Of a stretch of 64,000 nt of DNA, positions 3,344 to 62,650 are shown in pieces. Source of the DNA: Minisyncoccota bacterium (GTDB taxonomy: Bacteria; Patescibacteriota; Minisyncoccia; Phycocordibacterales; UBA9973); NCBI GenBank assembly GCA_041650615.1, contig JBAZKU010000001.1:185216-249215 (forward strand). Direction: 5' to 3'. The position numbers were made by a program, and so were the translations under genes. How positions within the stretch are numbered: position 1 is the first letter of the stretch; each line of letters opens with the position of its first letter. The notes beneath the pieces are model-generated. The model did no database searches, was not told where the DNA came from, and saw nothing but the letters and a program-made list of their open reading frames with translations.

Positions 3344-3357
3344 AAAATTTTATTAAA

Positions 3358-3462
3358 ATAGCGGGATTCTTATTTCTGGGGTCGCTGTCTGGGCTTACTA
3401 GCCCAGCGCTCACTCTCGCGCCGTCGCGCTGCTAGAGTCCCCATAAACAAGAATCCCGCTAT
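3358..3462. repeat. 105-nt hairpin element: 14-bp AT-rich inverted flanks (atagcgggattctt/aagaatcccgctat) around a 75-nt GC-rich core
   Basis: Sits between the prfA start and rpmE stop. The core shares GGGTCGCTG and CTCGCG motifs with the GC core inserted in rplY (5715..5738). Confidence 0.7.
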
Positions 3463-3468
3463 TTTTAC

Positions 3469-3699
3469 TTACTTCTTAGCTTTCTTTACAGCAGATGCAG
3501 AAGCAGCTCGGCGCTTATTAAAGCGTTCTACGCGTCCGGCAGTATCCATAACCTTTTCATTGCCAGTATAGAAAGGGTGACATTTACTACAAATTTCTAC
3601 TTTGATTTCAGGCATTGTTGAACCAACTTCAAAAACCGCTCCGCAGGCGCAAGTAGCTTTGGTATTTATACTATATTTTGGATGTATGTCTTTTTTCAT
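3469..3699 (-). CDS. rpmE: 50S ribosomal protein L31
   Basis: MKKDIHPKY..Cxx[11 protein letters not shown] is a classic L31 zinc-ribbon. Confidence 0.9.
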
Positions 3700-3817
3700 C
3701 CCGTTAGAGATAGGAAATCTTTAGATTTCCGTTTCTTAATTAAATTCTATTAAATAAACAAATTTCAACCTTACATAAAATAAATCCCGCTAATTAACCA
3801 AAGAAATCTCTAACGGG
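3699..3817. mobile_element. MITE-like element with 13-bp TIRs (tcccgttagagat/atctctaacggga) and a TCAT target-site duplication
   Basis: Perfect TIRs at 3699..3711 and 3805..3817. TSD tcat at 3696..3699 and 3820..3823; the left TSD copy contains the rpmE start codon. AT-rich interior. Confidence 0.75.
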
Positions 3818-3846
3818 ATTCATCTCCTCAAAAGATTATCACAATT

Positions 3847-5222: not shown

Positions 5223-5954
5223 TTATTTTTCTTCTCCTTTTTCTTCAGTCGCTTCCGTGGCAACTTCAACTTCTCCTCCTTCTTCCTCTTTCTTGCCTTT
5301 CTTTTCAACTTCAATTTCAGACAAATCCGGAGGTGCTACAACTTCTTCTTTTTCTTCTACTTGAAGAACTATGGAAGCTACAACATCATGCTCATTCGCA
5401 ATAACAATAACTCCGGCTGGTAATTTTATATCGGAAATAAAAATCTGGTTTTCTACTGTTTCAAGTTTGGATATGTCAACTTCCAGACTATGCGGAAGAT
5501 CTTTTGGCAATGCTTCAACTTCCACTTCATGAAGAACCTTAACAAGATTCCCTAATCCATTTTTTACAGCATTGGAAATGCCGATAAATTCAAGCGGAAC
5601 TTTAACTTTTATCTTCTTATTCATATCCACAACCAGAAAATCCACATGTATCGGTTCTTCCGTTACCGGATGCACCTGCACTTCGTGAATAAGCGCGTCA
5701 ACCCCGTTAGAGATAGAGGGTCGCTGCGAGCCCTCGCGATCTCTAACGGGGTCAACATTATTATCACCTATAGCTATTTTTATAGTGGAAGATTCTCCAG
5801 CTTCCCGCCAGATTTTTTTAAAATCAACAATTGATATGGAAATAGAAGTAGCAGTCTTGCCTGTTCCATAAAAAACAGCAGGGATTTCCCCTGTTTTCCT
5901 TAAAGTATCCAAATTAATACCTTCATTTCTCTTTTTAGCCTTGATTACAAACAT
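5223..5954 (-). CDS. rplY: 50S ribosomal protein L25 / general stress protein Ctc, with an 18-aa in-frame insertion and acidic C-terminal tail
   Basis: L25 N-domain (AVFYGTGK..) and beta-barrel motifs (HVDFLVVD). The insertion PVRDREGSQRPSISNGVD is encoded by the palindromic element at 5702..5751. Confidence 0.8.
   Translation of the reverse strand: MFVIKAKKRNEGINLDTLRKTGEIPAVFYGTGKTATSISISIVDFKKIWREAGESSTIKIAIGDNNVDPVRDREGSQRPSISNGVDALIHEVQVHPVTEEPIHVDFLVVDMNKKIKVKVPLEFIGISNAVKNGLGNLVKVLHEVEVEALPKDLPHSLEVDISKLETVENQIFISDIKLPAGVIVIANEHDVVASIVLQVEEKEEVVAPPDLSEIEVEKKGKKEEEGGEVEVATEATEEKGEEK
5702..5751. mobile_element. MITE-like element inside rplY: TIRs ccccgttagagat/atctctaacgggg around a GC core, flanked by a gtcaa/tcaac duplication
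   Basis: 13-bp perfect TIRs at 5702..5714 and 5739..5751. The core agagggtcgctgcgagccctcgcg is GC-rich. Element plus TSD is 54 nt, a multiple of 3, and is translated. Confidence 0.75.
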
Positions 5955-6950: not shown

Positions 6951-8426
6951 TTATTTTAGCAATTTTTTCAGTGTTTCAATAACAATTTGCGGATTCGCGC
7001 TACCCTTGCTTTCTTTTATAACTTTTCCAACTAGAGACATTATAGCATTTTCTTTGCCAGCTTTATATACGGCAACAACTTCAGAGTTTTCTGAAATTAC
7101 TTTCTCCACGACAGCTTTAATTACACTTTCATCGTTTTTCTGCAATAAACCTTTTTCTGTAGCAATTTTGAGTGGAGACTCATTTTTTAATACAATTATC
7201 GCTAAAATATCTTTCGTTACTCGAGATGAAATTTTACCCTCGGCAGCAAGATTTATCAGTTCGGCAAAGTTTTCAGCATTCGGACGTTGGACGTCTGAAT
7301 TATTCTTTTTAAGACCTAAGTAATCAGAAGTAATGTAATTAGAAGCAAGTTTTACTTTCTCTTGTTCTTTTAAAATTTCAGATACTTCTTCAAACCATTG
7401 ACCCAATTCTTTATCATTAATGTAACTTTCTATATCCTCATCTTTAATTCCAAAATCTTTTTTATATCTCGCGCGTTTTTCTGCCGGTAGTTCCGGTAAT
7501 TCTTCTTTTATTTTTTTCAAATCAAAAGCTTCGTGTAAATACATTTTGGGTAAATCCGGTTCCGGGAAATACCTATAATCATGACTTGATTCTTTTTTTC
7601 TTTGAGAAAATGTTTTTTGCTTCCCATCGTCCCATCCCCTGGTTTCCTGCACTATTTCGTTTTCTTTTCCATCCTCCAAAAGTTTTACCATTCTATCCAA
7701 TTCAAATTTAATCGCTTTTTCAACACTCTTAAACGAATTTAAATTTTTCACTTCTACCTTCGTACCCAATTTATTTTTATCTTCCGAAACTGAAATGTTT
7801 GCTTCCACTCTCATCTCGCCTTTTTCCATATTCGCTTCGGACACTTCTAGATACCAAAGGATAAGCTGTAATTCTTTGGCAAAATCGGATGTGGTTTTAG
7901 CGGCGCTTTCTGCATCATCAAAACTATGAGGCTCAGTAACAAGTTCCATTAATGGCACACCTGCACGATTAAAATCAACAAGAGAATAACCATTTTCCCA
8001 CATGTCAGACATGTGAGTTTCCACATGTCTGACATGTGGGAAATCTATATGTTTATTATTAGCTGTGTCTTCTTCTAAATGAATACGAGTAATGTCAAAA
8101 TCAGCCAATTTTCCGCCGAAAACTATCGGATATTTATATTGTGAAATCTGAAAGCCTTTTGGGATGTCAGGGTAAAAATAATTTTTGCGATCAAATTCGG
8201 TAAAATCCGCAATTTTTCCACCAATAGCCAATCCAACTTTTATGACATTTTCTATCGCTTTTTTATTGATTACCGGCAAAGCCCCTGGGTGAGCCATACA
8301 AACAGGACAAATATTTACATTCGGTTTTTCTTCGTCTGGGTCATTCTTACAATCACAAAACATTTTCGTCTGCGTTTTCAACTCCGCATGTACTTCCAAA
8401 CCAATTGTTGGGTAATACTTACTCAT
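6951..8426 (-). CDS. gatB: Asp-tRNA(Asn)/Glu-tRNA(Gln) amidotransferase subunit B
   Basis: GLEVHAEL, FCDC..CPVC, GYSLVDFNRAGVPLMELV, and a C-terminal GatB/YqeY domain. Contains an in-frame perfect hairpin insert at 7998..8040. Confidence 0.9.
   Translation of the reverse strand: MSKYYPTIGLEVHAELKTQTKMFCDCKNDPDEEKPNVNICPVCMAHPGALPVINKKAIENVIKVGLAIGGKIADFTEFDRKNYFYPDIPKGFQISQYKYPIVFGGKLADFDITRIHLEEDTANNKHIDFPHVRHVETHMSDMWENGYSLVDFNRAGVPLMELVTEPHSFDDAESAAKTTSDFAKELQLILWYLEVSEANMEKGEMRVEANISVSEDKNKLGTKVEVKNLNSFKSVEKAIKFELDRMVKLLEDGKENEIVQETRGWDDGKQKTFSQRKKESSHDYRYFPEPDLPKMYLHEAFDLKKIKEELPELPAEKRARYKKDFGIKDEDIESYINDKELGQWFEEVSEILKEQEKVKLASNYITSDYLGLKKNNSDVQRPNAENFAELINLAAEGKISSRVTKDILAIIVLKNESPLKIATEKGLLQKNDESVIKAVVEKVISENSEVVAVYKAGKENAIMSLVGKVIKESKGSANPQIVIETLKKLLK
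7998..8040. repeat. 43-nt perfect hairpin (two 19-nt arms of cccacatgtcagacatgtg around a 5-nt loop) in frame inside gatB
   Basis: Arms are exact reverse complements, and each arm is also internally palindromic. Encodes about HVRHVETHMSDMWE, which is absent from typical GatB. Confidence 0.8.
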
Positions 8427-8434
8427 ATAACAAA

Positions 8435-9487
8435 TTATACCTTTTTCTTTAAAATTTTCACTAATTCATCTTTGAGAGTTTTTACCGATTTATCGTCATA
8501 TAAAGAAAGCGCAAAAACTTTTTTGGGCCTGCCTGCGCAGGCAGGAATCTTCTCAAATTCTTTTTTCTTTTTGTCTATGATTTTTTCATTTTCTACCATG
8601 TCAGATTTTGTAAGAATAATAATTTCATCTTTTTGGGATAGGCCTTCTTCTCCCAAATCTAAATTCTTGTCATATTTTTCCAATTCCTTTCTTACAACCT
8701 TATAATTTTTCATCATCATAGATAAATTTCCCGCCCCGTAGGAAGCTTGCTTTCCTTCGGGGTCAAACGATATCAGATGCGCAATCATTTTAGTTCGTTT
8801 TATATGTCGTAAAAATTTAACACCAAGTCCCTTTCCCGTATTTGCTCCTTCTATCAACCCTGGGATATCGGCAATCGTGTATCCGTAAAAATCGCCCAAA
8901 TTCGGGTCAAGCGTAGTAAATTCATAATCTCCTATTTTTGCCTCAGCGTTTGTTATGACATTGAGCAATGAAGATTTACCGGCATTGGGCAATCCAACTA
9001 ATCCAATATCCGCAAAAAGTTCCAACTCTATATGAAAATTTCCATGTTCTCCTTCCATTCCCGGCCGCCATTCTTTTGGAGTCGTATTGGTAGAACTTTT
9101 AAAATGTTCATTGCCAAACCCCCCATATCCGCCTTTCAAAAGCAAAACTTTTTGCCCTTCTTCCAGTAATTGCCATTGCTCATCCGTTTCCAGGTTAGTG
9201 ATAATGGATCCTATCGGCAATTCTAAAAAAAAGTCATTCCCTTTTTTGCCGTGTAAACTTTTTTTACCTCCATCTTCTCCTCGTCCGGCGCTAAAACTTT
9301 TTTTGGCTTTGTATTTTGAAAGTATATGCACATCGCGGACAGCTTGCGCATAAAAATCTCCGCCACGTCCACCGTCGCCTCCTGCCGGTCCGCCTTTGGG
9401 CACAAATTTTTCTTGTCGCCAGCGAACTACTCCGTCGCCACCGCGACCCGCTTCTGCGTATATTTTTATTTCATCTATGAAGGCCAT
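8435..9487 (-). CDS. obg: GTPase Obg/CgtA
   Basis: Obg fold N-terminus (GGDGGRGG) and G-domain (GLPNAGKSSL, DIPGLIEGA). Carries two in-frame palindromic inserts at 8528..8545 and 8734..8762. Confidence 0.9.
   Translation of the reverse strand: MAFIDEIKIYAEAGRGGDGVVRWRQEKFVPKGGPAGGDGGRGGDFYAQAVRDVHILSKYKAKKSFSAGRGEDGGKKSLHGKKGNDFFLELPIGSIITNLETDEQWQLLEEGQKVLLLKGGYGGFGNEHFKSSTNTTPKEWRPGMEGEHGNFHIELELFADIGLVGLPNAGKSSLLNVITNAEAKIGDYEFTTLDPNLGDFYGYTIADIPGLIEGANTGKGLGVKFLRHIKRTKMIAHLISFDPEGKQASYGAGNLSMMMKNYKVVRKELEKYDKNLDLGEEGLSQKDEIIILTKSDMVENEKIIDKKKKEFEKIPACAGRPKKVFALSLYDDKSVKTLKDELVKILKKKV
8528..8545. repeat. 18-nt perfect GC palindrome cctgcctgcgcaggcagg in frame in obg
   Basis: Self-complementary. 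Encodes PACAGR near the Obg C-terminus. Confidence 0.7.
8734..8762. repeat. 29-nt imperfect palindrome ccccgtaggaagcttgctttccttcgggg (copy 1) in frame in obg
   Basis: Second copy at 60127..60156. Encodes PEGKQASYG. Confidence 0.75.
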
Positions 9488-9586
9488 GTAAAATTAAGAA
9501 AATAAAAATTTTAAGAGTCGTGGGTTCCCTGTCCTCATGGACTCCGAGGGCGAAGGCTCAAAAATTTTTGATTTTCTTAATTTTAC
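9488..9586. repeat. palindromic element spanning exactly from the stop codon of the upstream gene to the obg start codon: 25-bp AT-rich inverted flanks around a GC core (gtgggttccctgtcct..gactccgagggcgaag)
   Basis: Inverted flanks gtaaaattaagaaaat(a)aaaaatttt and the reverse complement. Core is homologous to the cores at 54223..54273 and 31336..31366. Confidence 0.75.
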
Positions 9587-10479
9587 ACCGAAAGTGCTAA
9601 TTCTGCTAATTTAATAGCTCCTTCTTTGGTTTTTGCCACAGCCATAAAAAGCCCTCTGTGGCAAAATACTGCATCAGAAACACCCGTGATTTTTTGCAAC
9701 TCTTCATCTCGCAACCCCGCCCAAGATTCCGGTAAATTCTTTCTATTTTTAAAAGTTTTCGGGTCCTCTCTAACCGCTTTTATCCCCCAAGTATTAGTGG
9801 TTCTCGGATAAATTATAAAAAAGGGCTCAGGAAAATTATTTAGCATATTCTCGTAAGGATAATCTTCGTCTAAAATAATGATTCTTTTATCTTTCGTATT
9901 TTGGTAAATTGATATTACTTTTTCTTCCGCCAAAATAGAATCTTTAGCTTGGATAATCTCTCTCGACAAAATTTCCTTGGCGAAATTTACACATTTTAAA
10001 AACATTTCATCTTTACTTAAGTCAGTTTCGCGCCAAGTCGGACGCATGGCTAAAAAAAAGTGTTGGATAAAATAAGGAGAAATATTATATTTATTTTCCA
10101 CTAAATCAAAACCGTTATCAAAAGCATCCACAGGAGCAACAAGCCGTGTATCTATTAACTTTGCCGCTTTTTTTGATCCAGTTAATTCTTCACCGAACTT
10201 CTTCCAAACTAAGCCAAAAGATGAATATAGGATTCCGATTTCCCCTTTCTCTTTGAAACCTATTTGATGATGGTCAAATCTATTTGTTTTTTCATCATAA
10301 ATTCCGCCCACATCAAAAACATAATCGCCATTCTTTATTATTTCTTCATCGCGCGTGCGGATTATTTCAAGACTTTCACCTTTTTTTTCTAACATTAAAG
10401 AAAGCGCAGCTGCGGCAAAAATATCATCTGCGTGGAAAGAACCATTATGTGTAATTAATTTTTTACTGTTTGTTTCCAT
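9583..10479 (-). CDS. MYG1/UPF0160 family metal-dependent hydrolase
   Basis: THNGSFHADD N-terminal motif; about 300-aa family with an HD-like fold. Confidence 0.7.
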   Translation of the reverse strand: METNSKKLITHNGSFHADDIFAAAALSLMLEKKGESLEIIRTRDEEIIKNGDYVFDVGGIYDEKTNRFDHHQIGFKEKGEIGILYSSFGLVWKKFGEELTGSKKAAKLIDTRLVAPVDAFDNGFDLVENKYNISPYFIQHFFLAMRPTWRETDLSKDEMFLKCVNFAKEILSREIIQAKDSILAEEKVISIYQNTKDKRIIILDEDYPYENMLNNFPEPFFIIYPRTTNTWGIKAVREDPKTFKNRKNLPESWAGLRDEELQKITGVSDAVFCHRGLFMAVAKTKEGAIKLAELALSV

Positions 10480-16719: not shown

Positions 16720-18441
16720 TTACCGATCCGGCGGAATTTCGTAATAATTAATCAAAAAGTTGGTAATATTTAAAAAATAATCTCCCCATGTTTGAATCGC
16801 ATAAAGTACGCCTTTGGGATTAACTGCATAAAGAAAAACAATGAATTCTGGATCATAAGCGGGGAAATATCCGACAAAGGAATGAATATGCCTATCTTCA
16901 TAATAACCTCCATTTACACTATCTGCAACTTGAGCGGTTCCTGTTTTTGCCGCCACGCTATAGTGCTCCAACTTCCCATTGGTCCCAAGATTTTTATCCA
17001 TAGCGTTCACCAGCATGCGAGTAATCTCTTCCGCGGTTAACTTGGATATTTTCGTGGGCGTCATACTATATGCTATATCTTTCTCTGTGCCATCATCATA
17101 TTTTATCCCTTTGACGATATGCGGAACAACCAAATTTCCACTATTTGAAAGTGAGGCCAGCGCCCGCACCAATTCAATCGGAGTTAAGGCAATACCTTGA
17201 CCAAAAGCAGCATTGGCATATTCAATTTCGCGAGGGCTATTTATTATATTGGAAACCAATCCGCTCGTTTCGTTCGGTAAATCAATCCCGGTCTTATCCT
17301 TAATGCCATAAGAAAGTAAATAATCTCTTACTTTTTCCTTGCCTAATTTTTGTTCCACAAAAACCATTCCGGTATTAAGGGACTGAGTTAAAACATCCTG
17401 CATTGTCGTACCCGGGCCTCTCCCCTTTTTATCAAAATTAAATATTTGATGTTTTTCAACTGTAACCTCCCCTTTGTCATTATATGTCGTAGCCGCTGTC
17501 ACTACTCCCGCATCCAGCGCTCCTGCCATAACCAAAGGTTTTACGACAGATCCAAATTCATATACATTTTCTACAAAGGGATTGGAAAAAATAGAGACGG
17601 TTTCAACTTGGGAAAAATTATTAAGGTCAAAATCGGGCTTGCTGCTAAGCGCATAAATGGAACCATCAGTGGGATTCATAATTATTCCCCCAACGGAATC
17701 AACTTGATATTTTGTTTTCACATTCTCCAATGTTTTTTCTAAAAAATTTTGCACTGTCGGTTCAATGGTCGTTACCACATCTCCTTCTTTTGATTTATCG
17801 CTAAATAATGTTTTATTTATATCAGAAAAAACTTCAGCAAAAAAATTTATATAAGGATTATCCTTATTTCTGGAAAGTTCATCATTATATTGTCTTTCTA
17901 AACCATAGCGACCACCGAGATCATTTCCTTTATAGGCTACAAAACCGAGCGATTGCGAAGCAAGACTGCCGCCAGGATAAAAACGCCATTTCTCTTTATA
18001 AATAGACAGGCCGGGGATTTTTAAAAGAGACACCGCATCAGCTTCCTCTTTTGTCAGACGATTTGCTATTTCTTCATAAGGGTCGTTTTCTTTTCCCGCC
18101 TGCGTTAAAAATTTATCATGGTCAATGGTTATTATTTTTGACAACTCCTGATAAACCGATTCTTTGTCAGTAATTTTAGCGGGATTAATGGCTATTTTGA
18201 ATCCGGTGGTTTGCATAGCCGCGGAAACAAGCTGGCCGTCTTTGCGTGAAAAATAAATAGTTCCGCGTTCAAAGATATTAGATGATGGCGTGGAATACTG
18301 CCTATCCGCTTGCTCGGAATAATCATCGCTATGTACGACTTGCACCAAAAAAAGCTTGCTTATTAAAATTAAGGCAAAAATTGAGATGCAAAAGAAAACA
18401 ATTCTGGTTCTAAAAAGAAAATTATATTTCATTTTTAGCAA
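16720..18441 (-). CDS. ftsI: penicillin-binding protein 2 / FtsI-type transpeptidase
   Basis: N-terminal TM and dimerization domain, plus a transpeptidase domain with SVVK (SxxK) and KTGTA motifs. Confidence 0.85.
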   Translation of the reverse strand: MLKMKYNFLFRTRIVFFCISIFALILISKLFLVQVVHSDDYSEQADRQYSTPSSNIFERGTIYFSRKDGQLVSAAMQTTGFKIAINPAKITDKESVYQELSKIITIDHDKFLTQAGKENDPYEEIANRLTKEEADAVSLLKIPGLSIYKEKWRFYPGGSLASQSLGFVAYKGNDLGGRYGLERQYNDELSRNKDNPYINFFAEVFSDINKTLFSDKSKEGDVVTTIEPTVQNFLEKTLENVKTKYQVDSVGGIIMNPTDGSIYALSSKPDFDLNNFSQVETVSIFSNPFVENVYEFGSVVKPLVMAGALDAGVVTAATTYNDKGEVTVEKHQIFNFDKKGRGPGTTMQDVLTQSLNTGMVFVEQKLGKEKVRDYLLSYGIKDKTGIDLPNETSGLVSNIINSPREIEYANAAFGQGIALTPIELVRALASLSNSGNLVVPHIVKGIKYDDGTEKDIAYSMTPTKISKLTAEEITRMLVNAMDKNLGTNGKLEHYSVAAKTGTAQVADSVNGGYYEDRHIHSFVGYFPAYDPEFIVFLYAVNPKGVLYAIQTWGDYFLNITNFLINYYEIPPDR

Positions 18442-22645: not shown

Positions 22646-22681
22646 AATTTAAATCCTAACCCTTTTTTGCAAAAAAGTCTA

Positions 22682-22789
22682 CTGAAAATTATAAAATAAA
22701 TCTTTCTCACGGCTCGCACTCGAACCTGACAATGGTTCACGAATCTAATATTGCGTATGCCGAAGAAAGACTTACTTTATAATTTTCAG
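22682..22789. repeat. third copy (reverse orientation) of the conserved 55-nt core found twice in leuS, flanked by a different ~25-bp inverted repeat (ctgaaaattataaaataaatctttc / gaaagacttactttataattttcag)
   Basis: Core cacggctcgcactcgaacctgacaatggttcacgaatctaatattgcgtatgccgaa is about 90% identical to the reverse complement of 50508..50562. Confidence 0.8.
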
Positions 22790-22832
22790 AAGCAAGCTTG
22801 CCTATACATTATCTATATGATAATCTACCTAA

Positions 22833-30696: not shown

Positions 30697-31842
30697 ATGA
30701 AAATCTTAAGCATTGAAACATCCTGCGATGACACAGGAATAACTTTGATGGAGGCAAAAGGAAGAGTAAATAATGCTTCTTTTAAAATCTTGGATAATGT
30801 CTCAAATTCGCAAATAAAAATCCATGCGGAATATGGCGGAGTATATCCGATGCTTGCAAAACGAGAACATATAAAAAATTTACCGATACTTTTAGAACAA
30901 GTACTTAAAAAGACTAAGCTTGATAAAAAGAAAAAGCCAGTGGATTTAATAGCTGTAACTTATGGACCGGGATTAGAACCAGCACTTTGGACAGGAATAG
31001 TTTTCGCCAAAGAACTGGCAAAAAAGTGGAATATACCGCTTATACCAGTGAATCATATGGAAGGACATATCCTATCGGCATTTGGAAAACACAAAGGAAA
31101 CTTTAAAATCCCCAAAATGGATTTTCCGGTACTATCTCTCCTTGTTTCCGGCGGACACACGGAACTTGTGCTCATAAAAAAATGGATGCAATATAAAATT
31201 ATCGGCGAAACATTGGATGATGCAGCCGGAGAAGCTTTTGATAAGGTAGCTAGGATGATGGGTTTCCCCTATCCCGGCGGACCAAAAATTTCAGAGTTGG
31301 CAGAAAAAGGGAGGGAGAAAATAGTTTTTAAAGGGACTCCGCAGGGCGACGGCCCGAGGACCGAGCAAATTTTTCAGCAGAGAAATTGCGACCCTTTAAA
31401 AATTGATTTTCTTCCTCCCTTTCTCCCCCGCCCGATGATTTACAGTAAAAATTTTGATTTTTCTTTTTCGGGACTGAAAACCGCCGTGCTTTATTTAATT
31501 AAAAAAATCGAGAAATTGAACGAGGAAACCAAAGAAAAAATCGCTTTGGAATTTGAAAATGCAGTAGTAGAAACTCTTGTCTATAAAACAATAAAGGCAA
31601 AAGAAAAATACAAGGTAAAAACTATCATTGTGGCCGGCGGGGTTTCTTGCAATAAGCACTTGCAAAAACAAATGAAAAAAACTATTGGCAAAGATATTGA
31701 ACTTTTTTTCCCGGAAAAAGAACTAACGGGAGATAATTCAATAATGGTAGGCATAGCCGGATATTTGAATTATCAAAAAAATAAAAATAAAATTCTTAAA
31801 ATAGACGTTATAAAGGCAAAAGGTAATTTACGCTTTAAATAG
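30697..31842 (+). CDS. tsaD: tRNA N6-adenosine threonylcarbamoyltransferase TsaD, with a ~31-aa in-frame insertion
   Basis: MKILSIETSCDDT.. and HMEGH metal motif. The insertion KGTPQGDGPRTEQIFQQRNCDPLKIDFLPPF lies before the conserved LPRPM..DFSFSGLKT. Confidence 0.85.
   Translation: MKILSIETSCDDTGITLMEAKGRVNNASFKILDNVSNSQIKIHAEYGGVYPMLAKREHIKNLPILLEQVLKKTKLDKKKKPVDLIAVTYGPGLEPALWTGIVFAKELAKKWNIPLIPVNHMEGHILSAFGKHKGNFKIPKMDFPVLSLLVSGGHTELVLIKKWMQYKIIGETLDDAAGEAFDKVARMMGFPYPGGPKISELAEKGREKIVFKGTPQGDGPRTEQIFQQRNCDPLKIDFLPPFLPRPMIYSKNFDFSFSGLKTAVLYLIKKIEKLNEETKEKIALEFENAVVETLVYKTIKAKEKYKVKTIIVAGGVSCNKHLQKQMKKTIGKDIELFFPEKELTGDNSIMVGIAGYLNYQKNKNKILKIDVIKAKGNLRFK
31326..31422. repeat. GC-rich insertion in tsaD, related to the gactccgagggcg core family, with flanking ttttaaaggg/ccctttaaaa inverted repeat
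   Basis: ggactccgcagggcgacggcccgagg resembles the cores at 9513..9559 and 54223..54273. Followed by a pyrimidine tract. Confidence 0.5.
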
Positions 31843-40076: not shown

Positions 40077-41324
40077 TTAAAAAAATTTATTTTTTGAAAT
40101 TTTGATTAGTCTATCGTATTTCACCTTCCTTTCCGGTTTTAATGGAGCGCCGGATTTTAAGCCAAAACAGCCAAAAGCGTAGGCGAGATCAGCGATAAAA
40201 TCATCGTCTGTCTCCCCGCTTCGATGAGAAATAATCAGTTCAATCCCGTTTTCTTTAGCCAATTTCATTGTTTCAAGTGTTTCGGAAAGTGTGCCGATTT
40301 GATTTGGTTTTATAATCATGGCATTGATGCTTCCTTTTTCTATCGCTTTTGCTAAAAGATTTCTATTAGTGACAGTTAAATCATCTCCTACTACCAAAAG
40401 ACCTTTCTTCAATCCAAATAAAGTTCTATTACTTTCCTTCAATTTTCTGAAACTTTCAAAATTTTCTTCATCAAAAGGGTCCTCAATGGAAAACAGTTTG
40501 AATTCATCAATCAAAGAGCCATAAATTTTTATTAATTCTTCTTTTAAAATATACTCACCATCAATTTTATATTTTCCATTCTCATAAAAAGATGAAGCGG
40601 CCACATCCAGAGCAAGTTTTACTTTTTTTTCTAAATTATTTTCTTTAATCGCTCTTTTTAAGAATTCCAACGGTTTTTTTATATCATCTATCTTTGGCGC
40701 AAAACCTCCTTCATCTCCCAAAATAATTGATTCCACGCCCAATTCTTCTAAAATTATTTCTTTCAGAGAATTTTGTATTTTGATTCCTATTTCAACCGCT
40801 TTGTCCGCATCGTTAACAATAGGCACAACATGATATTCTTGAAAGGCCAGATTATTATCAGTATGCTTCCCCCCTTCTATTAAATTCATATATAAATAAG
40901 GGATTTTTCTGGAAAATTTTATTTTAGCAAGCGTTCTCAGGTATTCAAAAGTTTCCAGATTAAAAACTTTAGCTGCCACTTTGGCGCAAGCAATACTTAC
41001 ACCAATAATTGCATTTCCACCTAAATTGTCTTTATTGGAAGTCCCATCTAATTTAATCATGATTCCATCAATCACTTCTTGATTCAGCACATTCTGGCCA
41101 ACCAAGGCGGGAGCAATTATATTATTTACTTTCTCTATGGCTCCTTTTATTCCTTTCCCATCCGCATCTCTCAATTCATGCGCTTCGTGAGTACCTGTAC
41201 TTGCCCCCGACGGCACAGCAAAACTACCGTATTTATCGCCAGCCCACATTGTTACTTTAATAGTCGGATTCCCTCGTGAATCTTTTATTTCTTCTGCTAT
41301 AATTTTAGTGATTTTTTTATCCAT
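40077..41324 (-). CDS. eno: enolase
   Basis: Full-length enolase (SGASTGTHEA, IKPNQIGTLSET). Start codon lies within the TSD of the upstream MITE. Confidence 0.95.
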   Translation of the reverse strand: MDKKITKIIAEEIKDSRGNPTIKVTMWAGDKYGSFAVPSGASTGTHEAHELRDADGKGIKGAIEKVNNIIAPALVGQNVLNQEVIDGIMIKLDGTSNKDNLGGNAIIGVSIACAKVAAKVFNLETFEYLRTLAKIKFSRKIPYLYMNLIEGGKHTDNNLAFQEYHVVPIVNDADKAVEIGIKIQNSLKEIILEELGVESIILGDEGGFAPKIDDIKKPLEFLKRAIKENNLEKKVKLALDVAASSFYENGKYKIDGEYILKEELIKIYGSLIDEFKLFSIEDPFDEENFESFRKLKESNRTLFGLKKGLLVVGDDLTVTNRNLLAKAIEKGSINAMIIKPNQIGTLSETLETMKLAKENGIELIISHRSGETDDDFIADLAYAFGCFGLKSGAPLKPERKVKYDRLIKISKNKFF

Positions 41325-41403
41325 CCCGTTAGAAATTTATGCTTAATTATTAATACTCAACTTTAATATCCCGTTTTCAGTATTTGTGTTATTTCTAACG
41401 GGA
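41324..41403. mobile_element. MITE-like element with TIRs tcccgttagaaat/atttctaacggga and a 5-bp TCCAT target-site duplication
   Basis: TIRs at 41324..41336 and 41391..41403. TSD tccat at 41320..41324 and 41404..41408; the left copy contains the eno start codon. Confidence 0.75.
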
Positions 41404-41412
41404 TCCATTTTT

Positions 41413-42687
41413 TTATTTTTTCGTTAAAAGAATCATTAGGTCTGAAACATTTGAACCGGTGGAACCCGTCATAATCAAATCGCCGGATTTCTGGAAAATT
41501 GAATAGGAGTCAAAGCGTTCCAAGTAATCTGAAACATTTAAATCTAATTTATTTATTTTTTTTATGGTATTTTTATCCACTATCGTTCCCGCTGCATTAC
41601 TATTATCCATTCCATCGGAAGCAAATGATATAAAAACAGAATTGTCACCAATCAGTTTCATTTTTATCGCTTTCAATCCCATATGAAGATTTCTTCCCCC
41701 CTTACCCTCATTATTCTTAACTACAATGCGAGGCTCCCCGGCAACCAAGACAACAGAATCACTTTTTTGAGCTGAAAATATTTTTTTAAGCGCTCTTCCT
41801 ACTTCATCATATAAATTGGTTGAGAGAATGTTTATCCCCAGATTAAATTCTTGCGCTTTTTTTGTCATCGCCTCCACGGCGGTTTTATTTGAAACAAGAA
41901 TAAAATTGTGAACATTTTCAAAATATTTATCTTCTTTGGGTGTTTCTATCAACTCAAACTTTCCTAAATTATTTTCTGTAATAATTTTTTCTGCATCAGC
42001 TATAGTGGTATTATCTTTATAGGTCGGTCCGGAAGCGACATTTTCAAAATTATCTCCTGGAATATCTGAAAAAATAAGGCTGATAACCGTAGCTGGATAA
42101 GCGATTTTGGCTAAACCTCCGCCCTTTAAAAGAGATAAATGTTTCCTAACGGTATTTATTTCAGCTATTGTTTTGCCAGATTTTAAAAATGCATCATATA
42201 GCTTAGCACCTTCCACGCATTCATTTTCCGGATAGCAAAGAAGGGCGGAACCGCCGCCAGAAACAATAACAATAACAAGGTCTTCTTCATTTGATTCTTT
42301 TGCCAATTCATATATTTTTTTTCCGGCTTCCATATTCACTTCAGAAGGTCTTGGATGCGTACCGGCAAAAATTTTTATATATTTACTGTCAACTTTATTA
42401 AGGTCAATGACAGCTCCCTCACTTACTCTTCGCCCTAAAATTTTCTCCAGCGCTAAGGCTGCTTCACTGGCGGATTTGCCGAAACCGAGAATTTTTATTT
42501 TTTTATATTTCGCTAAGTTGAACGATTCCCCTTTTATAAATAAAATGTTATCTGCCACAGATATAAAAGATTTTATAACTTTCTCTGTATTTATAGCATT
42601 CAGCCCAGCCTCCATTATTTCCAACGCTATTTCACGATTTGAAGTTGTGGCAAGCTCGTCAAAATTTTTAATGGATCGTTTTTCCAT
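41413..42687 (-). CDS. glycerate kinase (MOFRL family)
   Basis: MOFRL N- and C-domains (VIVSGGGSALL, GKGGRNLHMGL). Confidence 0.75.
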   Translation of the reverse strand: MEKRSIKNFDELATTSNREIALEIMEAGLNAINTEKVIKSFISVADNILFIKGESFNLAKYKKIKILGFGKSASEAALALEKILGRRVSEGAVIDLNKVDSKYIKIFAGTHPRPSEVNMEAGKKIYELAKESNEEDLVIVIVSGGGSALLCYPENECVEGAKLYDAFLKSGKTIAEINTVRKHLSLLKGGGLAKIAYPATVISLIFSDIPGDNFENVASGPTYKDNTTIADAEKIITENNLGKFELIETPKEDKYFENVHNFILVSNKTAVEAMTKKAQEFNLGINILSTNLYDEVGRALKKIFSAQKSDSVVLVAGEPRIVVKNNEGKGGRNLHMGLKAIKMKLIGDNSVFISFASDGMDNSNAAGTIVDKNTIKKINKLDLNVSDYLERFDSYSIFQKSGDLIMTGSTGSNVSDLMILLTKK

Positions 42688-50030: not shown

Positions 50031-52619
50031 CTAACTTAGTATGTTAATAACCCTATTTTTTACATAAATGACTCTTTTTATATCTTTATTCAGATGTTTT
50101 AAAACATTTTCATCTGTAAGAGCTTTTTTCTTCACTTCATCTTCTATCTCATCCATTTGGATCAAAATTTCAGATCTGACTCTACCATTTACTTGCACGG
50201 CAATTTTTATTTCCTGGTCTTTTACTAAATCCTCATCCCATTTTGGCCAAGCTGAAAGATGAATACTTTTTTTCTCTCCTAAATCATACCAAATATTTTC
50301 AGTAATGTGTGGAGCAAATGGAGCTAAAATTTGCAAGAATTTTTTGTAATCTTCCGCGTCTATATTTTCCACTTTTTCCATTTCTGTCGCGAGTATCATC
50401 ATGGCGGAAATCGCAGTATTAAAACGCATATTTTCTATATCTTCCGAAACTTTTTTAATTGTTTTGTGTAGTAGCTTTTTCAAAGATTGCGAAGCAGAAC
50501 TTTTTTCGGCATACGCAATATTAGGTTCGTGAACCACATTCAGGTTCGAGTGCGAGCCGTGAAAAAGTTGCTGCTTCGCAATCTTTTCTGCTATTCTCCA
50601 AACTTTTTCTATAAATCTTCTAGAACCAATAATACTTTCCGTGCTCCAGGCAACTGCTTCCTCAAACGGTCCCATAAACATTTCATAGACACGCAAAGTG
50701 TCTGCGCCGTAAGTTTTAACAATATCGTCTGGATTTACGACATTACCTAAAGATTTTGACATTTTTACCCCTCCTTCGCCCAAAATCATCCCATGAGAAG
50801 TTCTTTTCTGATAAGGTTCTACTGTTGGCACAAGTTTTAAATCATATAAAAACTTATGCCAAAAACGTGAATACAATAAATGAAGAGTGGTGTGTTCCAT
50901 TCCCCCGTTATACCAATCAATCGGCGTCCAATATTTTAATTTTTTCTTATCTGCAAAGATTTTATTATTTTTAGGGTCCGTATATCTTAAATAATACCAA
51001 GAGCTTCCAGCCCAGTTCGGCATCGTGTCTGTTTCCCTTTTTGCTTTGCCGCCGCATTTCGGACATTTTGTATTTACCCATTTTGAAATGGAGGCAAGCG
51101 GAGATTCGCCCGTATCTGTCGGTTTATAACTTTTTACTTCTGGTAATTTTATCGGCAAGTCCTTATCCGGCACCGGTACCAGTCCGCATTTTTCGCAATT
51201 AACCAACGGTATCGGTTCACCCCAGTATCTCTGTCTTGAAAAGACCCAATCTCTTAATTTGAATTTTGTGACAATTTTCCCACCGACAAATTCCGTGATT
51301 TTTTTTCGGGCTTCTTCAGAACCCATGTAATCAAATTGTTTAGAAGAATGTATTAAAATACCTTCCCCATCATAAAAATCTTTTGGTTCTCCTTCCAATA
51401 AATCTGCATCAGTAATAACCTGTCTTATCGGCAAATTGTATTTCTTAGCAAAAGCAAAATCTCTTTCATCATGAGCAGGAACTGCCATAATGGCGCCTGT
51501 GCCATAATCCGGCAATACATAGTCAGCAATAAAAACAGGCACTTCTTCATCATTTGCCGGATTTATTGCTTTAATGCCTTTTAACTCCACCCCCGTTTTT
51601 TCTTTTTCATCAGCCGTTCTTTCAATTTCAGATTTTTTCTTTGCCTTTTTTATATATTCTTCAACTTCTTTTTTATTTTTAACTTGCCCTAAAAATTTTG
51701 TCACCAACGGATGTTCAGGAGCAAGTACGACATAAGTCGCTCCAAAAAGCGTATCCGCGCGCGTGGTGAATACTTTTATTTTAAAAGATTGCGAAGCAGT
51801 GCTTTTTTCGGCATACGCAATATTAGGTTCGTTAACCATATTCAGGTTCGAGTGCGAGCCGTGAAAAAGCATCTGCTTCGCAATCTTTATCTTAAAAACA
51901 ATCTCGCTTCCTTCCGACTTTCCTATCCAGTTTCTTTGCTGAATTTTTACCCGCTCCGGATAGTCAACCAAATCCAAATCTTTATCCAATCTATCCGCGT
52001 ATTTTGTAATTGCCAGCATCCATTGTTCTTTTTCTCTCTTTTCCGTCTTACTTCCGCAACGTTCGCAAATTCCGCCTGACGCCTCCTCGTTCGCCAAGCC
52101 GATTTTACAGGAAGGGCACCAATTTATATAAGATTTCGCTTTATATGCCAAACCTTTTTTGAAAAATTGCAAAAATATCCATTGCGTCCATTTATAATAT
52201 TTAGGGTCGGTAGTATTTATTTCCCGGGTCCAATCAAAAGAAATGCCAAGCATTTTTATTTGCCTACGGAAATTGTCCGTATTTTTTTTAGTTACAATTG
52301 CCGGATGAATACCTGTTTTAATAGCATAATTTTCTGTTGGTAAACCAAAGGCATCCCAACCGATAGGATAAAGTACATTTAAACCTTCCATTCTTTTTTT
52401 TCTAGAAATAACATCCATTCCGATATATGGCCTCGGATGTCCTACGTGCAGTCCATCGCCGGATGGATAAGGAAATTCAATTAGGGCGTAAAATTTACGC
52501 CCTAATCGCCCCGTAGCGAGTTTTGCTCCACTACCGGGGCTCGTGGTATTGTAAATTCCGCTCTTCTCCCATTCTTTTTGAACCCTTAATTCGATTTTTT
52601 TATGATCATATTCCTTCAT
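50031..52619 (-). CDS. leuS: leucine--tRNA ligase carrying two 35-aa in-frame copies of a repeat element plus an N-terminal insert
   Basis: HVGH (PYPSGDGLHVGHP) and KMSKS motifs. Start trimmed to MKEYDHKK. Two near-identical segments ..LFHGSHSNLN(V/M)V(H/N)EPNIAYAEKS.. disrupt conserved blocks. Confidence 0.9.
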   Translation of the reverse strand: MKEYDHKKIELRVQKEWEKSGIYNTTSPGSGAKLATGRLGRKFYALIEFPYPSGDGLHVGHPRPYIGMDVISRKKRMEGLNVLYPIGWDAFGLPTENYAIKTGIHPAIVTKKNTDNFRRQIKMLGISFDWTREINTTDPKYYKWTQWIFLQFFKKGLAYKAKSYINWCPSCKIGLANEEASGGICERCGSKTEKREKEQWMLAITKYADRLDKDLDLVDYPERVKIQQRNWIGKSEGSEIVFKIKIAKQMLFHGSHSNLNMVNEPNIAYAEKSTASQSFKIKVFTTRADTLFGATYVVLAPEHPLVTKFLGQVKNKKEVEEYIKKAKKKSEIERTADEKEKTGVELKGIKAINPANDEEVPVFIADYVLPDYGTGAIMAVPAHDERDFAFAKKYNLPIRQVITDADLLEGEPKDFYDGEGILIHSSKQFDYMGSEEARKKITEFVGGKIVTKFKLRDWVFSRQRYWGEPIPLVNCEKCGLVPVPDKDLPIKLPEVKSYKPTDTGESPLASISKWVNTKCPKCGGKAKRETDTMPNWAGSSWYYLRYTDPKNNKIFADKKKLKYWTPIDWYNGGMEHTTLHLLYSRFWHKFLYDLKLVPTVEPYQKRTSHGMILGEGGVKMSKSLGNVVNPDDIVKTYGADTLRVYEMFMGPFEEAVAWSTESIIGSRRFIEKVWRIAEKIAKQQLFHGSHSNLNVVHEPNIAYAEKSSASQSLKKLLHKTIKKVSEDIENMRFNTAISAMMILATEMEKVENIDAEDYKKFLQILAPFAPHITENIWYDLGEKKSIHLSAWPKWDEDLVKDQEIKIAVQVNGRVRSEILIQMDEIEDEVKKKALTDENVLKHLNKDIKRVIYVKNRVINILS
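50482..50586. mobile_element. 105-nt palindromic element in leuS, copy 1: 25-bp inverted flanks aaagattgcgaagcag.. around a 55-nt conserved core
   Basis: 16-bp perfect IR aaagattgcgaagcag/ctgcttcgcaatcttt. Length is a multiple of 3 and is translated. Confidence 0.85.
51784..51888. mobile_element. 105-nt palindromic element in leuS, copy 2 (same orientation, about 1.3 kb from copy 1)
   Basis: About 93% identical to 50482..50586, with the same IR flanks. Confidence 0.85.
52490..52545. repeat. GC-rich imperfect palindrome (ccccggtag..ctacgggg) encoding an extra SPGSGAKLATGRLGRK segment near the LeuS N-terminus
   Basis: A GC island in frame. The segment is absent from canonical LeuS N-termini. 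Confidence 0.45.
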
Positions 52620-53685: not shown

Positions 53686-54651
53686 TTAGCACCAAATAGC
53701 CGTATTTGAAAGCGGAATAATGCGATTGTTTGATTTTTCAAGCAAGCATAATTCACCGGCTGAAACTTCCCCTTTCAAGCCAGTCATAATATTTTCCAGC
53801 GCATAACCTAAAGAGAATGAAGACAAATCTGTCGCATAAGAATTTAAAATAATAAAAAGCGGTTTGTCGCTTAAAATTTTTCGCACCCCTTCTAGAAGCT
53901 TCGGCAAATCTTTTTCTATGTCCCAAGTTTCCCCTTTTGGTCCGCGGCCGAATTTCGGCGGGTCCATTATCACAGCATCATACTTGTTTCCCCTTTTTTC
54001 TTCACGTTCAATAAATTTTAAAACATCTTCACAGATAATTCGCATTGGCATATCTCCCAATCCAGAAATTTTTTGATTTTCTTTTGCCCATTCGGTGGAA
54101 GATTTTGAAGCGTCTATGTGTGTGACTTCCGCGCCGGCACGAAGAGCAAAAAGACTGGCCACCCCGGTGTAACCGAATAAATTTAAGAATTTAATTCTAG
54201 GCGAGCTTGAGGAAGAATTTTTTAGAAACGTGTGGGTCCCCTGTCCTTTTGACTCCGAGGGCGCAGTTTCAGAAAAATTCTTCCTCAAGCTCGCCATTCC
54301 GATTTTTTCTTCTATAAAATCCCAATGAACTGCCTGTTCGGGGAAAAAACCTAAATGTCTGAAAGGTGTAGGTGAAGCCAAAAATTTGATACCTTTATAC
54401 GACATTCCCCATTTATCTCCAATTTTTTTGTTCATTTTCCAGCCACTCTTAGCGCCAGTCTTAGAACTCCAAAACTTTCCGTCTGCTTTTCCCCACTCTT
54501 TGCTTCCCAGAGTTTTATTCCAAACAGCCTCCTCATAAGGACGTATAAAAGTATATGGACCAAACTTTTCTAATTTCTCTCCCTCTCCTGTATCCAGAAG
54601 CTTATAATCAACCCAATCTTTTGCACAAAAAATTTTAATTTCTTTTTTCAT
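53686..54651 (-). CDS. class I SAM-dependent RNA methyltransferase (RlmI/YccW-like) with a 32-aa in-frame insertion
   Basis: SAM-binding LNLFGYTGVASLFALRAGA..VTHIDAS, with a PUA-like N-terminus. The insertion ASLRKNFSETAPSESKGQGTHTFLKNSSSSSP is encoded by the palindromic element at 54200..54295. Confidence 0.65.
   Translation of the reverse strand: MKKEIKIFCAKDWVDYKLLDTGEGEKLEKFGPYTFIRPYEEAVWNKTLGSKEWGKADGKFWSSKTGAKSGWKMNKKIGDKWGMSYKGIKFLASPTPFRHLGFFPEQAVHWDFIEEKIGMASLRKNFSETAPSESKGQGTHTFLKNSSSSSPRIKFLNLFGYTGVASLFALRAGAEVTHIDASKSSTEWAKENQKISGLGDMPMRIICEDVLKFIEREEKRGNKYDAVIMDPPKFGRGPKGETWDIEKDLPKLLEGVRKILSDKPLFIILNSYATDLSSFSLGYALENIMTGLKGEVSAGELCLLEKSNNRIIPLSNTAIWC
54200..54295. mobile_element. 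96-nt palindromic element in the methyltransferase gene: 23-bp perfect inverted flanks ggcgagcttgaggaagaattttt around a GC core gtgggtcccctgtcct..gactccgagggcgcag
   Basis: Flanks are exact reverse complements. The core is about 85% identical to the core at 9513..9559. 96 nt = 32 codons. Confidence 0.8.
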
Positions 54652-61437: not shown

Positions 61438-62529
61438 TTAAATAGTTCCTCCTGTTTTTATAACATGCTCGACCAATGTATAGGCATACCCCATTTCATT
61501 ATCATACCAACCCAATACTTTTACCAAATTGCCATCAACTACGCGGGTCATTTCCAAGTCGGCAATGGATGCATGCGATTCCCCTAAAATATCAGAAGAA
61601 ACCAATGGTTCCTTGGTAACAGCAAATACTTTTTCCCAACGCTTGTCTTTTGACGCTTTTTCTAAAATCGCATTAACTTCTTCTTTGGTGGTATTTTTCT
61701 TTGAAATAAAAGTGACATCTACAATTGACCCAGCTACTACCGGCACGCGAACAGAAATACCATCAAATAATCCTTTTAATTCCGGAAAAGCCTCCGTCAC
61801 AGCGATAGCTGCACCGGTTGAACTTGGAACTATGTTTTGCGCAGCCGCGCGTCCCTCGCGCAAATCCTTTTTACTTGGCCCGTCCACAAGCGCTTGAGAA
61901 GCTGTATATCCATGAACTGTATTTAAAATCGCTTTTTCTATCCCCAAAGCTTCATGTAAAATTGCAATTAGAGGGCTTGCGGCATTGGTGGTACAAGATG
62001 CATTAGAAGTAATATCGCAAGTACCGAATTTATTTTCATTAATTCCCAACAATATTGTTTCTCCTTTTACACTTCCCTCATTTCCCCCGCCTAGACTCGC
62101 GCTAGTCGAGGCTGGTTTAGAAGGCGCAGAGATCACAACTTTTTTTGCACCTTGTTCAATATGAAATTTTGCCTTGTCATAAGAAGTAAACAGTCCGGTT
62201 GATTCAACCACCACATCAATATTCAAATCTTTCCAAGGAAGTTTCGTGGTGTCTTTTTCAGAAATGAATTTAATCTTTTTTCCGTCAATTATCAAATCAG
62301 CGCCGGAAACTTCTACGGAATGATTCCAATTTCGGTAAACAGTATCATGACGCAATAAGTAAGCTAAACTTTCTATGGAACCTAAATCATTTACTGCCAC
62401 TATCTCAAGCTCGGGTTTTTCCCAGGCTACTTTTAAAAATGCCCTGCCTATCCTGCCAAAACCATTAATAGATATTTTGATCTTTTTCATAATAATATTA
62501 TAGCACATAATATATGTCCAAAAAGGCAA
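61438..62529 (-). CDS. gap: glyceraldehyde-3-phosphate dehydrogenase with an ~18-aa in-frame insertion
   Basis: NGFGRIGR Rossmann motif and catalytic SNASCTTN. The insertion PASTSASLGGGNEGSVKG before the conserved block is encoded by the repeat at 62086..62130. Confidence 0.9.
   Translation of the reverse strand: MPFWTYIMCYNIIMKKIKISINGFGRIGRAFLKVAWEKPELEIVAVNDLGSIESLAYLLRHDTVYRNWNHSVEVSGADLIIDGKKIKFISEKDTTKLPWKDLNIDVVVESTGLFTSYDKAKFHIEQGAKKVVISAPSKPASTSASLGGGNEGSVKGETILLGINENKFGTCDITSNASCTTNAASPLIAILHEALGIEKAILNTVHGYTASQALVDGPSKKDLREGRAAAQNIVPSSTGAAIAVTEAFPELKGLFDGISVRVPVVAGSIVDVTFISKKNTTKEEVNAILEKASKDKRWEKVFAVTKEPLVSSDILGESHASIADLEMTRVVDGNLVKVLGWYDNEMGYAYTLVEHVIKTGGTI
62086..62130. repeat. 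GC-rich repeat, family cccgcctWgact.., in frame in gap
   Basis: cccgcctagactcgcgctagtcgaggctggt matches 312..342 (in the atpB tail) at 28 of 31 positions. Confidence 0.8.
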
Positions 62530-62538
62530 AGAATCAAA

Positions 62539-62615
62539 TTTTTGCCGGTACGGATTTTTTGAAGCTTAAAAAATCCTGAAATTGGCTCGCCGTCGCTCGC
62601 CAAACCCCTTAAAAA
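62539..62615. repeat. ~77-nt intergenic element, copy 2 (hairpin plus GGCTCGCC direct repeats), between gap and dnaE
   Basis: About 97% identical to 1697..1772. Followed on the minus strand by TGTGCTATAAT 6 nt before the gap ATG. Confidence 0.8.
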
Positions 62616-62650
62616 TTTATTCTTTGCCTTTTTATGTTAATATAGTAAAA

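Follow-up and report, generated by a model that had tools for sequence, protein, structure and literature searches.

A 64-kb stretch of a Minisyncoccota genome (64,000 nucleotides of contig JBAZKU010000001.1, G+C about 36%; hereafter the window) contains three short sequences, called copies 1 to 3 here, each of which is bounded by the perfect 13-nt inverted ends YCCCGTTAGARAT. Two of them sit on start codons, those of rpmE (3469-3699, minus strand) and eno (40077-41324, minus strand), and the third lies within rplY (5223-5954), which encodes ribosomal protein L25 (Table 1). The original prediction, drawn from the DNA sequence alone, took the three for copies of a MITE-like family (MITE: miniature inverted-repeat transposable element). 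All three pairs of ends exist. Their arms are complementary at 12 of 12 positions in every copy, as the exact 12-nt CCCGTTAGARAT / ATYTCTAACGGG, and the six occurrences of CCCGTTAGARAT without mismatch in the 64 kb form these three inverted pairs and no others. Allowing one or two mismatches gives matches at chance-level frequency in the window, where a generic search for CCCG...CGGG inverted pairs also returned only the same three copies. The coordinates first given were right for copies 2 and 3, but the right end of copy 1 was placed one base short (it is 3818, not 3817). The target-site duplications are likewise present but had been read slightly out of register: what was described as TCAT, TCCAT and gtcaa/tcaac are the tetranucleotides TTCA, TCCA and TCAA.

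Reading base by base bears out the predicted placement of two copies on start codons and of one in frame. The A of the rpmE ATG (3699) is the terminal base of copy 1 and the A of the eno ATG (41324) that of copy 3, the TG of both regenerated start codons being supplied by the duplicated target. The original rpmE ATG (3823-3821) now begins a 9-codon upstream open reading frame (ORF), MNPVRDFFG followed by a stop, and the original eno ATG, four bases past the stop (41413-41415) of the upstream gene, begins one of 21 codons whose stop lies inside copy 3. The interior of copy 3 contains AACGGGAT, a partial internal right end in gene orientation. Directly 5' of the original rpmE ATG an extended -10 box, TGTGATAAT, followed by GAGGAG (3838-3846, minus strand), is retained upstream of the insert, so that rpmE transcription and its first translation start probably still come from host signals. 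Within rplY, copy 2 adds the 18 residues that had been predicted, being translated as PVRDREGSQRPSISNG plus a repeated VD. In an AlphaFold model of the window L25 (mean pLDDT 66.6) the insert forms a low-confidence, predicted disordered loop between two strands.

The three window sequences are insertions relative to related genomes, and the empty site in relatives that had been proposed as a check is found for each of them. In a syntenic relative (L001; such handles denote loci in other genomes) with the gene order gatB-fba-rplY-SLT-rpmE-prfA, both the rplY and the rpmE sites are empty: the former reads AAT ATT GAC GCT and the latter ..CACG ATG AAA AAA GAA, each with one copy of the tetranucleotide and no element. 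For eno, the empty site in L136 reads ..AAATT ATGGA TAAAAAAATTAC.. where the window has ..ATGGA[element]TGGA TAAAAAAATCAC. The rplY insert is also absent from the 17 closest aligned L25 orthologues (80-86% identity). No strain polymorphism was seen at the rpmE site, the region being identical in three other assemblies of the same strain.

The copies belong to a family of wide distribution. A scan of one genome per species with the pattern CCCGTTAGANNT N(24-54) ANNTCTAACGGG found at least 120 stretches with the family ends, against our own chance estimate of about 17, and the hosts among the matches listed include many Patescibacteria classes, Planctomycetota, Omnitrophota, Nitrospirota, Desulfobacterota-type metagenome-assembled genomes and others. 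The end consensus is YCCCGTTAGA plus three variable, mutually complementary bases, which makes a 13-nt inverted repeat; outside CCCG stands C or T, complementary in 120 of 129 copies to the base outside GGG, so that the predicted length of 13 bp holds up to its last position. Across these 129 copies the two flanks agree at four positions in 74-81% and at the next position on either side in 43-44%, which defines a 4-nt duplication next to the 13-nt repeat and disposes of a 5-nt or 6-nt one. The duplicated tetranucleotide has the consensus TNNA (T in 72%, A in 79%), and with it the search for further copies and the catalogue of duplications that had been suggested both come out in favour of the family.

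Elements range from 27 to 140 nt in size, with minimal versions of 27-36 nt; two or three copies are found in many 8-kb loci, and nested copies exist. The family has what marks a MITE, namely inverted ends, a target duplication with empty sites and many small non-coding copies. In Rfam 15 only tRNAs and rRNAs reach the gathering score in the window and 18 loci, leaving the elements unmatched. A conserved three-way-junction structure was considered and rejected, since the interior is stabler than shuffles in only about 17% of copies and such a structure is a subfamily trait. Phage carriage was also rejected, with only 5 IMG/VR matches.

Placement on start codons is a trait of the family, about ten-fold over expectation and with an orientation bias. 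In 41 of 132 copies an ORF of 60 codons or more takes as its start codon the element's last base plus TG, and 33 of 132 are read through in frame by a long ORF. The observed start-codon share of 40/104 (38%) compares with the 3-4% expected among TNNA sites outside long ORFs in the same loci. Near their left end, start-codon copies have a partial internal right end (CGGGR), which follows the gene's orientation in 21 and is reversed in 3; some carry their own Shine-Dalgarno sequence and an in-frame ATG, and one end variant, ..AGGTCTAACGGG, puts GGAGGT eight bases 5' of the ATG. The length of the insert (element plus one duplication) is a multiple of three in 87 of 133 copies (65%, p = 8e-14). 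In-frame copies are translated as PVR...SNG in 29 cases and as PLE...LTG in 8, and their hosts include IF-2, GatB, UvrC, M17 aminopeptidase (PepA) and a glycosyltransferase, with SecA, DnaE and UvrA added by eye. The family settles on start codons, or in frame within essential genes, and does not break the genes. Targeting of stop codons was discarded as an explanation, because the distance distribution reflects only the ATGA overlap and the TAG inside the end. As a separate observation, the UvrC ORF of L061 (4662-6119, minus strand) has, besides its PVRSHARAKGTSPKDLGEDTSNG insert, a further stretch rich in Gly, Pro and Arg, RVLGPSSGGGPAQRGDRRDWSPGSGAKGS, with the look of another GC-rich insertion in frame.

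The family has moved repeatedly and recently. One codon of L25 holds an insert in five genes, with differing duplications and interiors (Table 1), and this permissive codon has been entered repeatedly and independently. Two of the hosts, L133 and L134, have L25 proteins that are 73% identical, and codons for the same amino acid differ in DNA in 2 of 22 cases inside the insert against 71 of 124 outside it, each host having its own tetranucleotide duplicated. Near-identical inserts with host-specific duplications are thus separate recent insertions of almost one element and not a single old insertion.

Copy 2 itself represents a subfamily, the rplY type, whose conserved core it shares. A metagenome scan with the core pattern CCCGTT N6 CGCGAGGGCTCGCAGCG found near-identical 50-nt elements at a minimum of 107 unique loci, and the duplications among the loci listed are varied (TTGA 13, TGAA 6, TAAA 6, TCAA 5, TGGG 5, TAGA 4 and others). 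At end positions 10-12, nine complementary triplet pairs account for 88 of the 107 listed copies, and positions 1-9 and the core are constant. Such compensating triplets are expected if the arms pair together and unexpected if a protein reads each duplex end separately. Where elements of this type sit on start codons, the core lies on the sense strand in 15:0 (among the loci listed); in that orientation the old and the new ATG are separated by the element as an extension of 18 codons that is open and hydrophilic. In the window, a 10-mer of the rplY-type core also occurs at 17229-17238, outside any recognised element.

The coding element with matching ends that the original prediction proposed to look for does exist, but it encodes a GIY-YIG nuclease. 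The first example, in L194, holds a single ORF of 85 codons that starts nine bases past the left end; the right end encodes its last residues, ..F L S L T G, and the duplicated target serves as its TGA stop. This 277-nt unit is the only coding unit found between these ends in the loci screened. The 85-residue protein matches the Pfam GIY-YIG family (PF01541) with E = 3e-15 over residues 1-66 of 85, and its catalytic residues (Tyr, Tyr-x-Gly, Arg, His and Glu) do not vary among 40 homologs. Searching with the protein gave 5794 homologs, nearly all of them 85 or 94 residues long and carrying Patescibacteria names. Of the best 120 among these, 105 have the C-terminus S[L/R]TG encoded by the right end. 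The 94-residue forms start with MNPVRD or MSPVRD, which is the host ATG, the duplicated target and the left end read in frame, and an end variant yields the start MNPERD. Nuclease subgroups co-vary with end variants: among the best 120 homologs the ARSRE subgroup goes with SLTG in 73:0 and the ARQRE subgroup with SRTG in 16:0, and the end variant found on the prfA start codon of L004 also flanks an ARQRE-subgroup gene (that of L263). At the DNA level, 5/5 units lie on a host ATGA(A/G) in host-gene orientation, with TGAA or TGAG duplicated.

Searches of the loci for a classical transposase were negative. No transposase-like ORF recurs among their 775 clustered ORFs, and 1.7 Mb of DNA flanking about 250 loci contains neither a long element with these ends and a matching duplication nor a DDE transposase near the elements or bounded by their ends. 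The literature searched contains no description of the family, nor of GIY-YIG transposons in the candidate phyla radiation (CPR). The window encodes no enzyme for the family, so mobilisation must be in trans, just as had been predicted; of the transposase-mediated mobilisation proposed with it the mobility stands, but the partner found is the 277-nt nuclease unit and not an insertion sequence of the classical kind. Two further small genes were noted. At L123 (1929-2165) lies a more distant GIY-YIG gene, 40% identical, with no CCCGTTAGA ends at its borders and with other GC-rich hairpins just upstream; it may be part of another nuclease-repeat pair. In L094 (5362-5660) a left end stands 5 nt ahead of a GIY-YIG ORF that has an apparent frameshift after about 43 residues and no right end, probably a decayed coding unit.

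Table 1. Positions and properties of the window copies, the inserts in L25 genes, a variant element on prfA and the coding units. Rows with an L-number refer to other genomes.
Feature	Position	Strand	Duplication	Properties
Copy 1	3699-3818	-		120 nt; rpmE start; ends TCCCGTTAGAGAT / ATCTCTAACGGGA; interior AT-rich; non-autonomous
Copy 1 duplication, gene-proximal	3695-3698		TTCA on +, TGAA on coding strand	
Copy 1 duplication, distal	3819-3822		TTCA	with 3823, original rpmE ATG (3823-3821)
Copy 2	5702-5751	-		50 nt; in frame in rplY; ends CCCCGTTAGAGAT / ATCTCTAACGGGG; coding-strand core CGCGAGGGCTCGCAGCGACCCTCT
Copy 2 duplication	5698-5701 and 5752-5755		TCAA on +, TTGA on coding strand	
Copy 3	41324-41403	-		80 nt; eno start; ends TCCCGTTAGAAAT / ATTTCTAACGGGA
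Copy 3 duplication	41320-41323		TCCA on +, TGGA on coding strand	
Copy 3 duplication, distal	41404-41407		TCCA	with 41408, original eno ATG
L25 insert, window			TTGA	24-nt core
L25 insert, L002			TGGA	45-nt core
L25 insert, L133			TTGA	other 45-nt core
L25 insert, L134			TAGA	other 45-nt core, near-identical to L133 insert
L25 insert, L004			decayed	interior decayed
Variant element, L004	4183-4256		TGGA	exactly on prfA ATG; variant end CCCGTACGAAAT, pair TCCCGTACGAAAT / ATTTCGTACGGGA
Coding unit, L194	5508-5784		TGAA	277 nt; perfect ends TCCCGTTAGAGAT / ATCTCTAACGGGA; on host ATG; first example found
Coding unit, L255				5' of TrmB-like gene
Coding unit, L263				between tpiA and pgk
Coding unit, L271				5' of beta-CASP gene
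Coding unit, L272				between T2SS-E and T2SS-F

We favour, with a probability of roughly 70%, the explanation that the window copies are non-autonomous members of a tiny mobile family mobilised by the 85-residue GIY-YIG nuclease of the 277-nt unit. The nuclease would mobilise its own unit and, in trans, the short copies. What it recognises may be the hairpin that the paired ends form in DNA that is single-stranded or cruciform, in the manner of Ssn nucleases and their repeats; such recognition would explain why changes at inner stem positions occur only as compensating pairs. The 277-nt unit, probably without expression signals of its own, would insert into ATGA(A/G) at a host start codon in host orientation, where the host ribosome-binding site and ATG would open a frame through the left end (MNPVRD...) into the nuclease gene. 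The stop TGA would come from the duplicated target and the element's last base (A or G) would restore the host ATG or GTG, with the host gene re-initiated at the ATGA overlap. The 4-nt duplication could arise through symmetric cuts at the base of the cruciform, followed by host ligation and fill-in, or with the help of a host partner. Short copies would persist where imprecise loss kills the gene, that is at start codons and in in-frame surface loops (PVR...SNG), and those in spacers would decay freely; survival only where loss must be precise would explain the enrichment at start codons and in frame, along with the excess of lengths divisible by three. A broader claim, to which we give even odds, is that this is a previously unrecognised class of minimal transposon, whose autonomous form would be a 277-nt unit without promoter or ribosome-binding site, living on ATGA(A/G) starts and encoding an Ssn-related 85-residue GIY-YIG nuclease that mobilises hairpin-ended DNA with a 4-nt duplication.

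A number of observations count against mobilisation by the nuclease. The window itself has no GIY-YIG gene within its 64 kb, and the nuclease gene has no significant similarity to the interiors of copies 1 and 3, so that the idea of the window copies as its recognisable deletion derivatives was given up; the codons ahead of the right end of copy 1, ..DFLSLTG, resemble the nuclease C-terminus, but this likeness alone is not significant. The GIY-YIG homologs listed have Patescibacteria names only, yet short elements are found in other phyla too. The nearest solved chain is UPF0213 BH0048 (1ZG2, E = 2.5e-8), and the protein may belong either to UPF0213 or to cd10448, the clade that contains SsnA. 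The published SRM motif of the Ssn system, HGTCWYN(0-2)YYVSBRHN(0-5)WNVSBRGN(0-2)RNCYNB with its conserved 5' GTC flank, has 0 matches in the window and 0/178 among the copies, with a positive NTS control, and the family is therefore not filed as SRM. A simple sigma-70 scan detected no promoter inside the two start-codon copies of the window; this result fits read-through from host signals, and promoter delivery by the elements was rejected on account of it. Finally, there is the chemistry. GIY-YIG nucleases are hydrolytic and are not known for joining DNA strands, and a 4-nt duplication is a classical signature of DDE transposases.

The most probable alternative is one in which the short elements are ordinary MITEs of a DDE transposase making 4-bp staggered cuts (IS1380/piggyBac-like, IS701 or IS5-like) and the GIY-YIG gene is a passenger or was itself inserted between the ends. 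It accounts directly for inverted ends combined with a 4-nt duplication and asks no strand transfer of a GIY-YIG enzyme; the family ends, starting with CC(C) and containing TAGA, moreover resemble those of ISEcp1 and piggyBac. We nevertheless judge it unlikely, given that the 775 ORFs include no recurrent transposase-like one, that the 1.7 Mb holds no long element with the ends and a matching duplication, and that the 277-nt unit has space for the nuclease gene only. The perfect co-variation of nuclease subgroups with end variants also speaks against this alternative, and compensating changes in the arms are not what would be expected of protein recognition of duplex ends.

It is far less probable still that the hairpins serve the host in regulation (as RNase III sites, in translational control or as signals for transcription), kept by selection and not selfish. 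The same genes have empty sites in the closest relatives, a quarter of the copies lie in frame within unrelated proteins, and target duplications and nesting of copies would have no place in such a scheme; there is also no Rfam match, and the interior is unstructured in most copies. What the idea does have is the strong enrichment exactly at start codons, the orientation bias, the GGAGGT that the ..AGGTCTAACGGG variant sets eight bases ahead of the ATG, and a precedent in the cleavage of Correia hairpins by RNase III (PMC10969869). Co-option of individual copies may occur, yet it leaves the family unexplained. Homing, in which the nuclease would cut the empty allele at a defined site and the element be copied by recombination from the filled one, would suit both the near-identical inserts at the same L25 codon of several diverged lineages and the standing of GIY-YIG enzymes as classical homing endonucleases, but is highly improbable with more than 100 insertion sites and varied 4-nt duplications for one 50-nt subfamily, and with L25 hosts that each duplicate their own tetranucleotide on both sides (TTGA, TAGA, TGGA), which co-conversion from a donor would not produce.

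The family bears on several wider questions. In CPR genomes few unexplained genes are as common as those for small GIY-YIG proteins, and the family supplies genetic evidence of mobility in the form of target duplications, empty sites, near-identical bursts and a nuclease that co-varies with the ends. Whether such a nuclease acts as a transposase becomes directly testable with a protein of 85 residues and a substrate of 50 nt. Should the family truly be a class of minimal transposon, similar spread may account for the Ssn-type repeats that Neisseria, Wolbachia and Rickettsia carry. The elements illustrate a way for selfish DNA to survive in genomes of 0.6 Mb, where hardly any DNA is spare, by rebuilding start codons and by occupying in-frame loops of ribosomal and repair proteins. 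For annotation, gene calls that are extended by MNPVRD or contain PVR...SNG are artefacts of biological insertion and not of assembly. The elements should also be useful as markers of recent gene flow between uncultured phyla.

The window holds other palindromic insertions too, at least ten in its 64 kb. Between the rpmE stop and the prfA start lies a 111-nt palindromic element (3355-3465; hairpin 3358-3462) with a GC-rich core. It is a separate insertion, absent from L001 where the rpmE TAA directly abuts the prfA ATG, and its arms differ from those of the family studied here. It is a member of a different family; the arms include TAGCGGGATTC / GAATCCCGCTA, a sequence like both the dRS3/NTS stem ATTCCCGC...GCGGGAAT and the internal AGCGGGAT motif of start-codon copies. 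The original prediction saw modular GC cores shared between this 105-nt hairpin and the rplY copy, a weak suggestion, since the overlap comes down to a single 9-mer, GGGTCGCTG, which arises in about 2% of shuffles (p about 0.02). Long hairpins at 54200-54295 and 9487-9587 have a common GC core (GTGGGTyCCCTGTCCT..GACTCCGAGGGCG) and unrelated AT-rich arms of about 30 nt. Those at 50482-50586, 51784-51888 and 22679-22792 (reverse strand) have the common core CGGCATACGCAATATTAGGTTCG..CAGGTTCGAGTGCGAGCCGTG and no Rfam match; in two of them the arms resemble each other (AAAGATTGCGAAGCAG..) and their differences compensate, and in the third they are different. At 31303-31425 and 62520-62633 lie hairpins of about 115-123 nt with long arms and GC-rich centres. 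A perfect palindrome at 7994-8043, its arms 22 nt long (TTTCCCACATGTCAGACATGTG..), lies within gatB (6951-8426, minus strand) and is translated in frame; GatB of L001 has a different sequence at this spot and a further 18-residue insert elsewhere. In L136, the eno ATG and the stop of the gene upstream are separated by a different hairpin, of 37 nt (CCTTACAAACTGGAGTTTGTAAGG, at about 1465-1500); gene junctions of this lineage attract small palindromes of several kinds.

Several known systems share features with the family. IS200/IS605 elements, with REP/RAYT, and integron attC sites are single-stranded DNA sites recognised by their structure; for the elements here, too, the proposal is that the enzyme recognises a folded hairpin and not duplex sequence, and stem positions co-vary. 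IS200/IS605 elements and REPs, however, make no target duplication, use HUH tyrosine enzymes and insert 3' of a fixed tetranucleotide, and the variable, duplicated tetranucleotide of our family excludes identity with them. In attC sites, the substrates of a tyrosine recombinase, RYYYAAC lies 5' and GTTRRRY 3' of the hairpin; the order here is GTTAGAR...YTCTAAC on either strand, opposite to attC, and that identity was rejected as well.

Correia elements of Neisseria and other bacterial MITEs are alike in being short and non-autonomous, with inverted ends and a target duplication, and in lying near gene starts, where they are co-transcribed. The inverted ends of Correia elements are of about 26 bp and TA is duplicated. 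They are longer than the present elements, the first to be described having 204 bp, and have strong sigma-70-like promoters and an IHF-binding site (PMC10969869). The family here instead has 13-nt ends, a TNNA duplication, a start codon regenerated by the terminal base and, in the two start-codon copies of the window, no consensus promoter; lacking the defining features, it is not a Correia family. Closer in habit are the Rickettsia palindromic elements, of about 150 bp and in ten families (Ogata et al. 2000, 2002, summarised in PMC10969869). Both are palindromic selfish repeats that lie in frame in unrelated housekeeping genes, where the peptide occupies a tolerated loop, and both proliferate and decay in reduced genomes. 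The present elements differ in their size of 27-140 nt, in one conserved 13-nt end across several phyla, and in their clear 4-nt duplication, their coding partner and their strong preference for start codons.

Among known systems the Ssn nucleases come closest, single-domain GIY-YIG proteins of about 94 residues whose substrate is single-stranded DNA next to a hairpin repeat, and neither duplex DNA nor RNA (Chenal et al. 2025, Nat Commun, PMC11893778). Their genes are flanked on both sides by the repeat, which has hundreds of copies in Neisseria, Wolbachia, Rickettsia and others, and their discoverers liken the NTS-ssnA-NTS arrangement to an insertion sequence and call the role of Ssn-type nucleases outside Neisseria an open question (PMC11893778). 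In the parts of that article drawn on here, there is no mention of Patescibacteria, of target sites or of duplications (PMC11893778). The gene in our family is flanked by two halves of one inverted repeat and not by two complete hairpins, and its hosts are Patescibacteria and other uncultured phyla; 4-nt duplications, empty sites, nesting and in-frame and start-codon copies are further differences, none being described in the same parts of PMC11893778. Common to both are a single-domain GIY-YIG protein of about 85-94 residues, a gene bracketed on both sides by a genome-dispersed repeat, a repeat hairpin with the outer stem (T)TCCCG...CGGGA(A), and nuclease subgroups that each have their own repeat variant. 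The family thus works like an Ssn-repeat pair, whether or not it is one.

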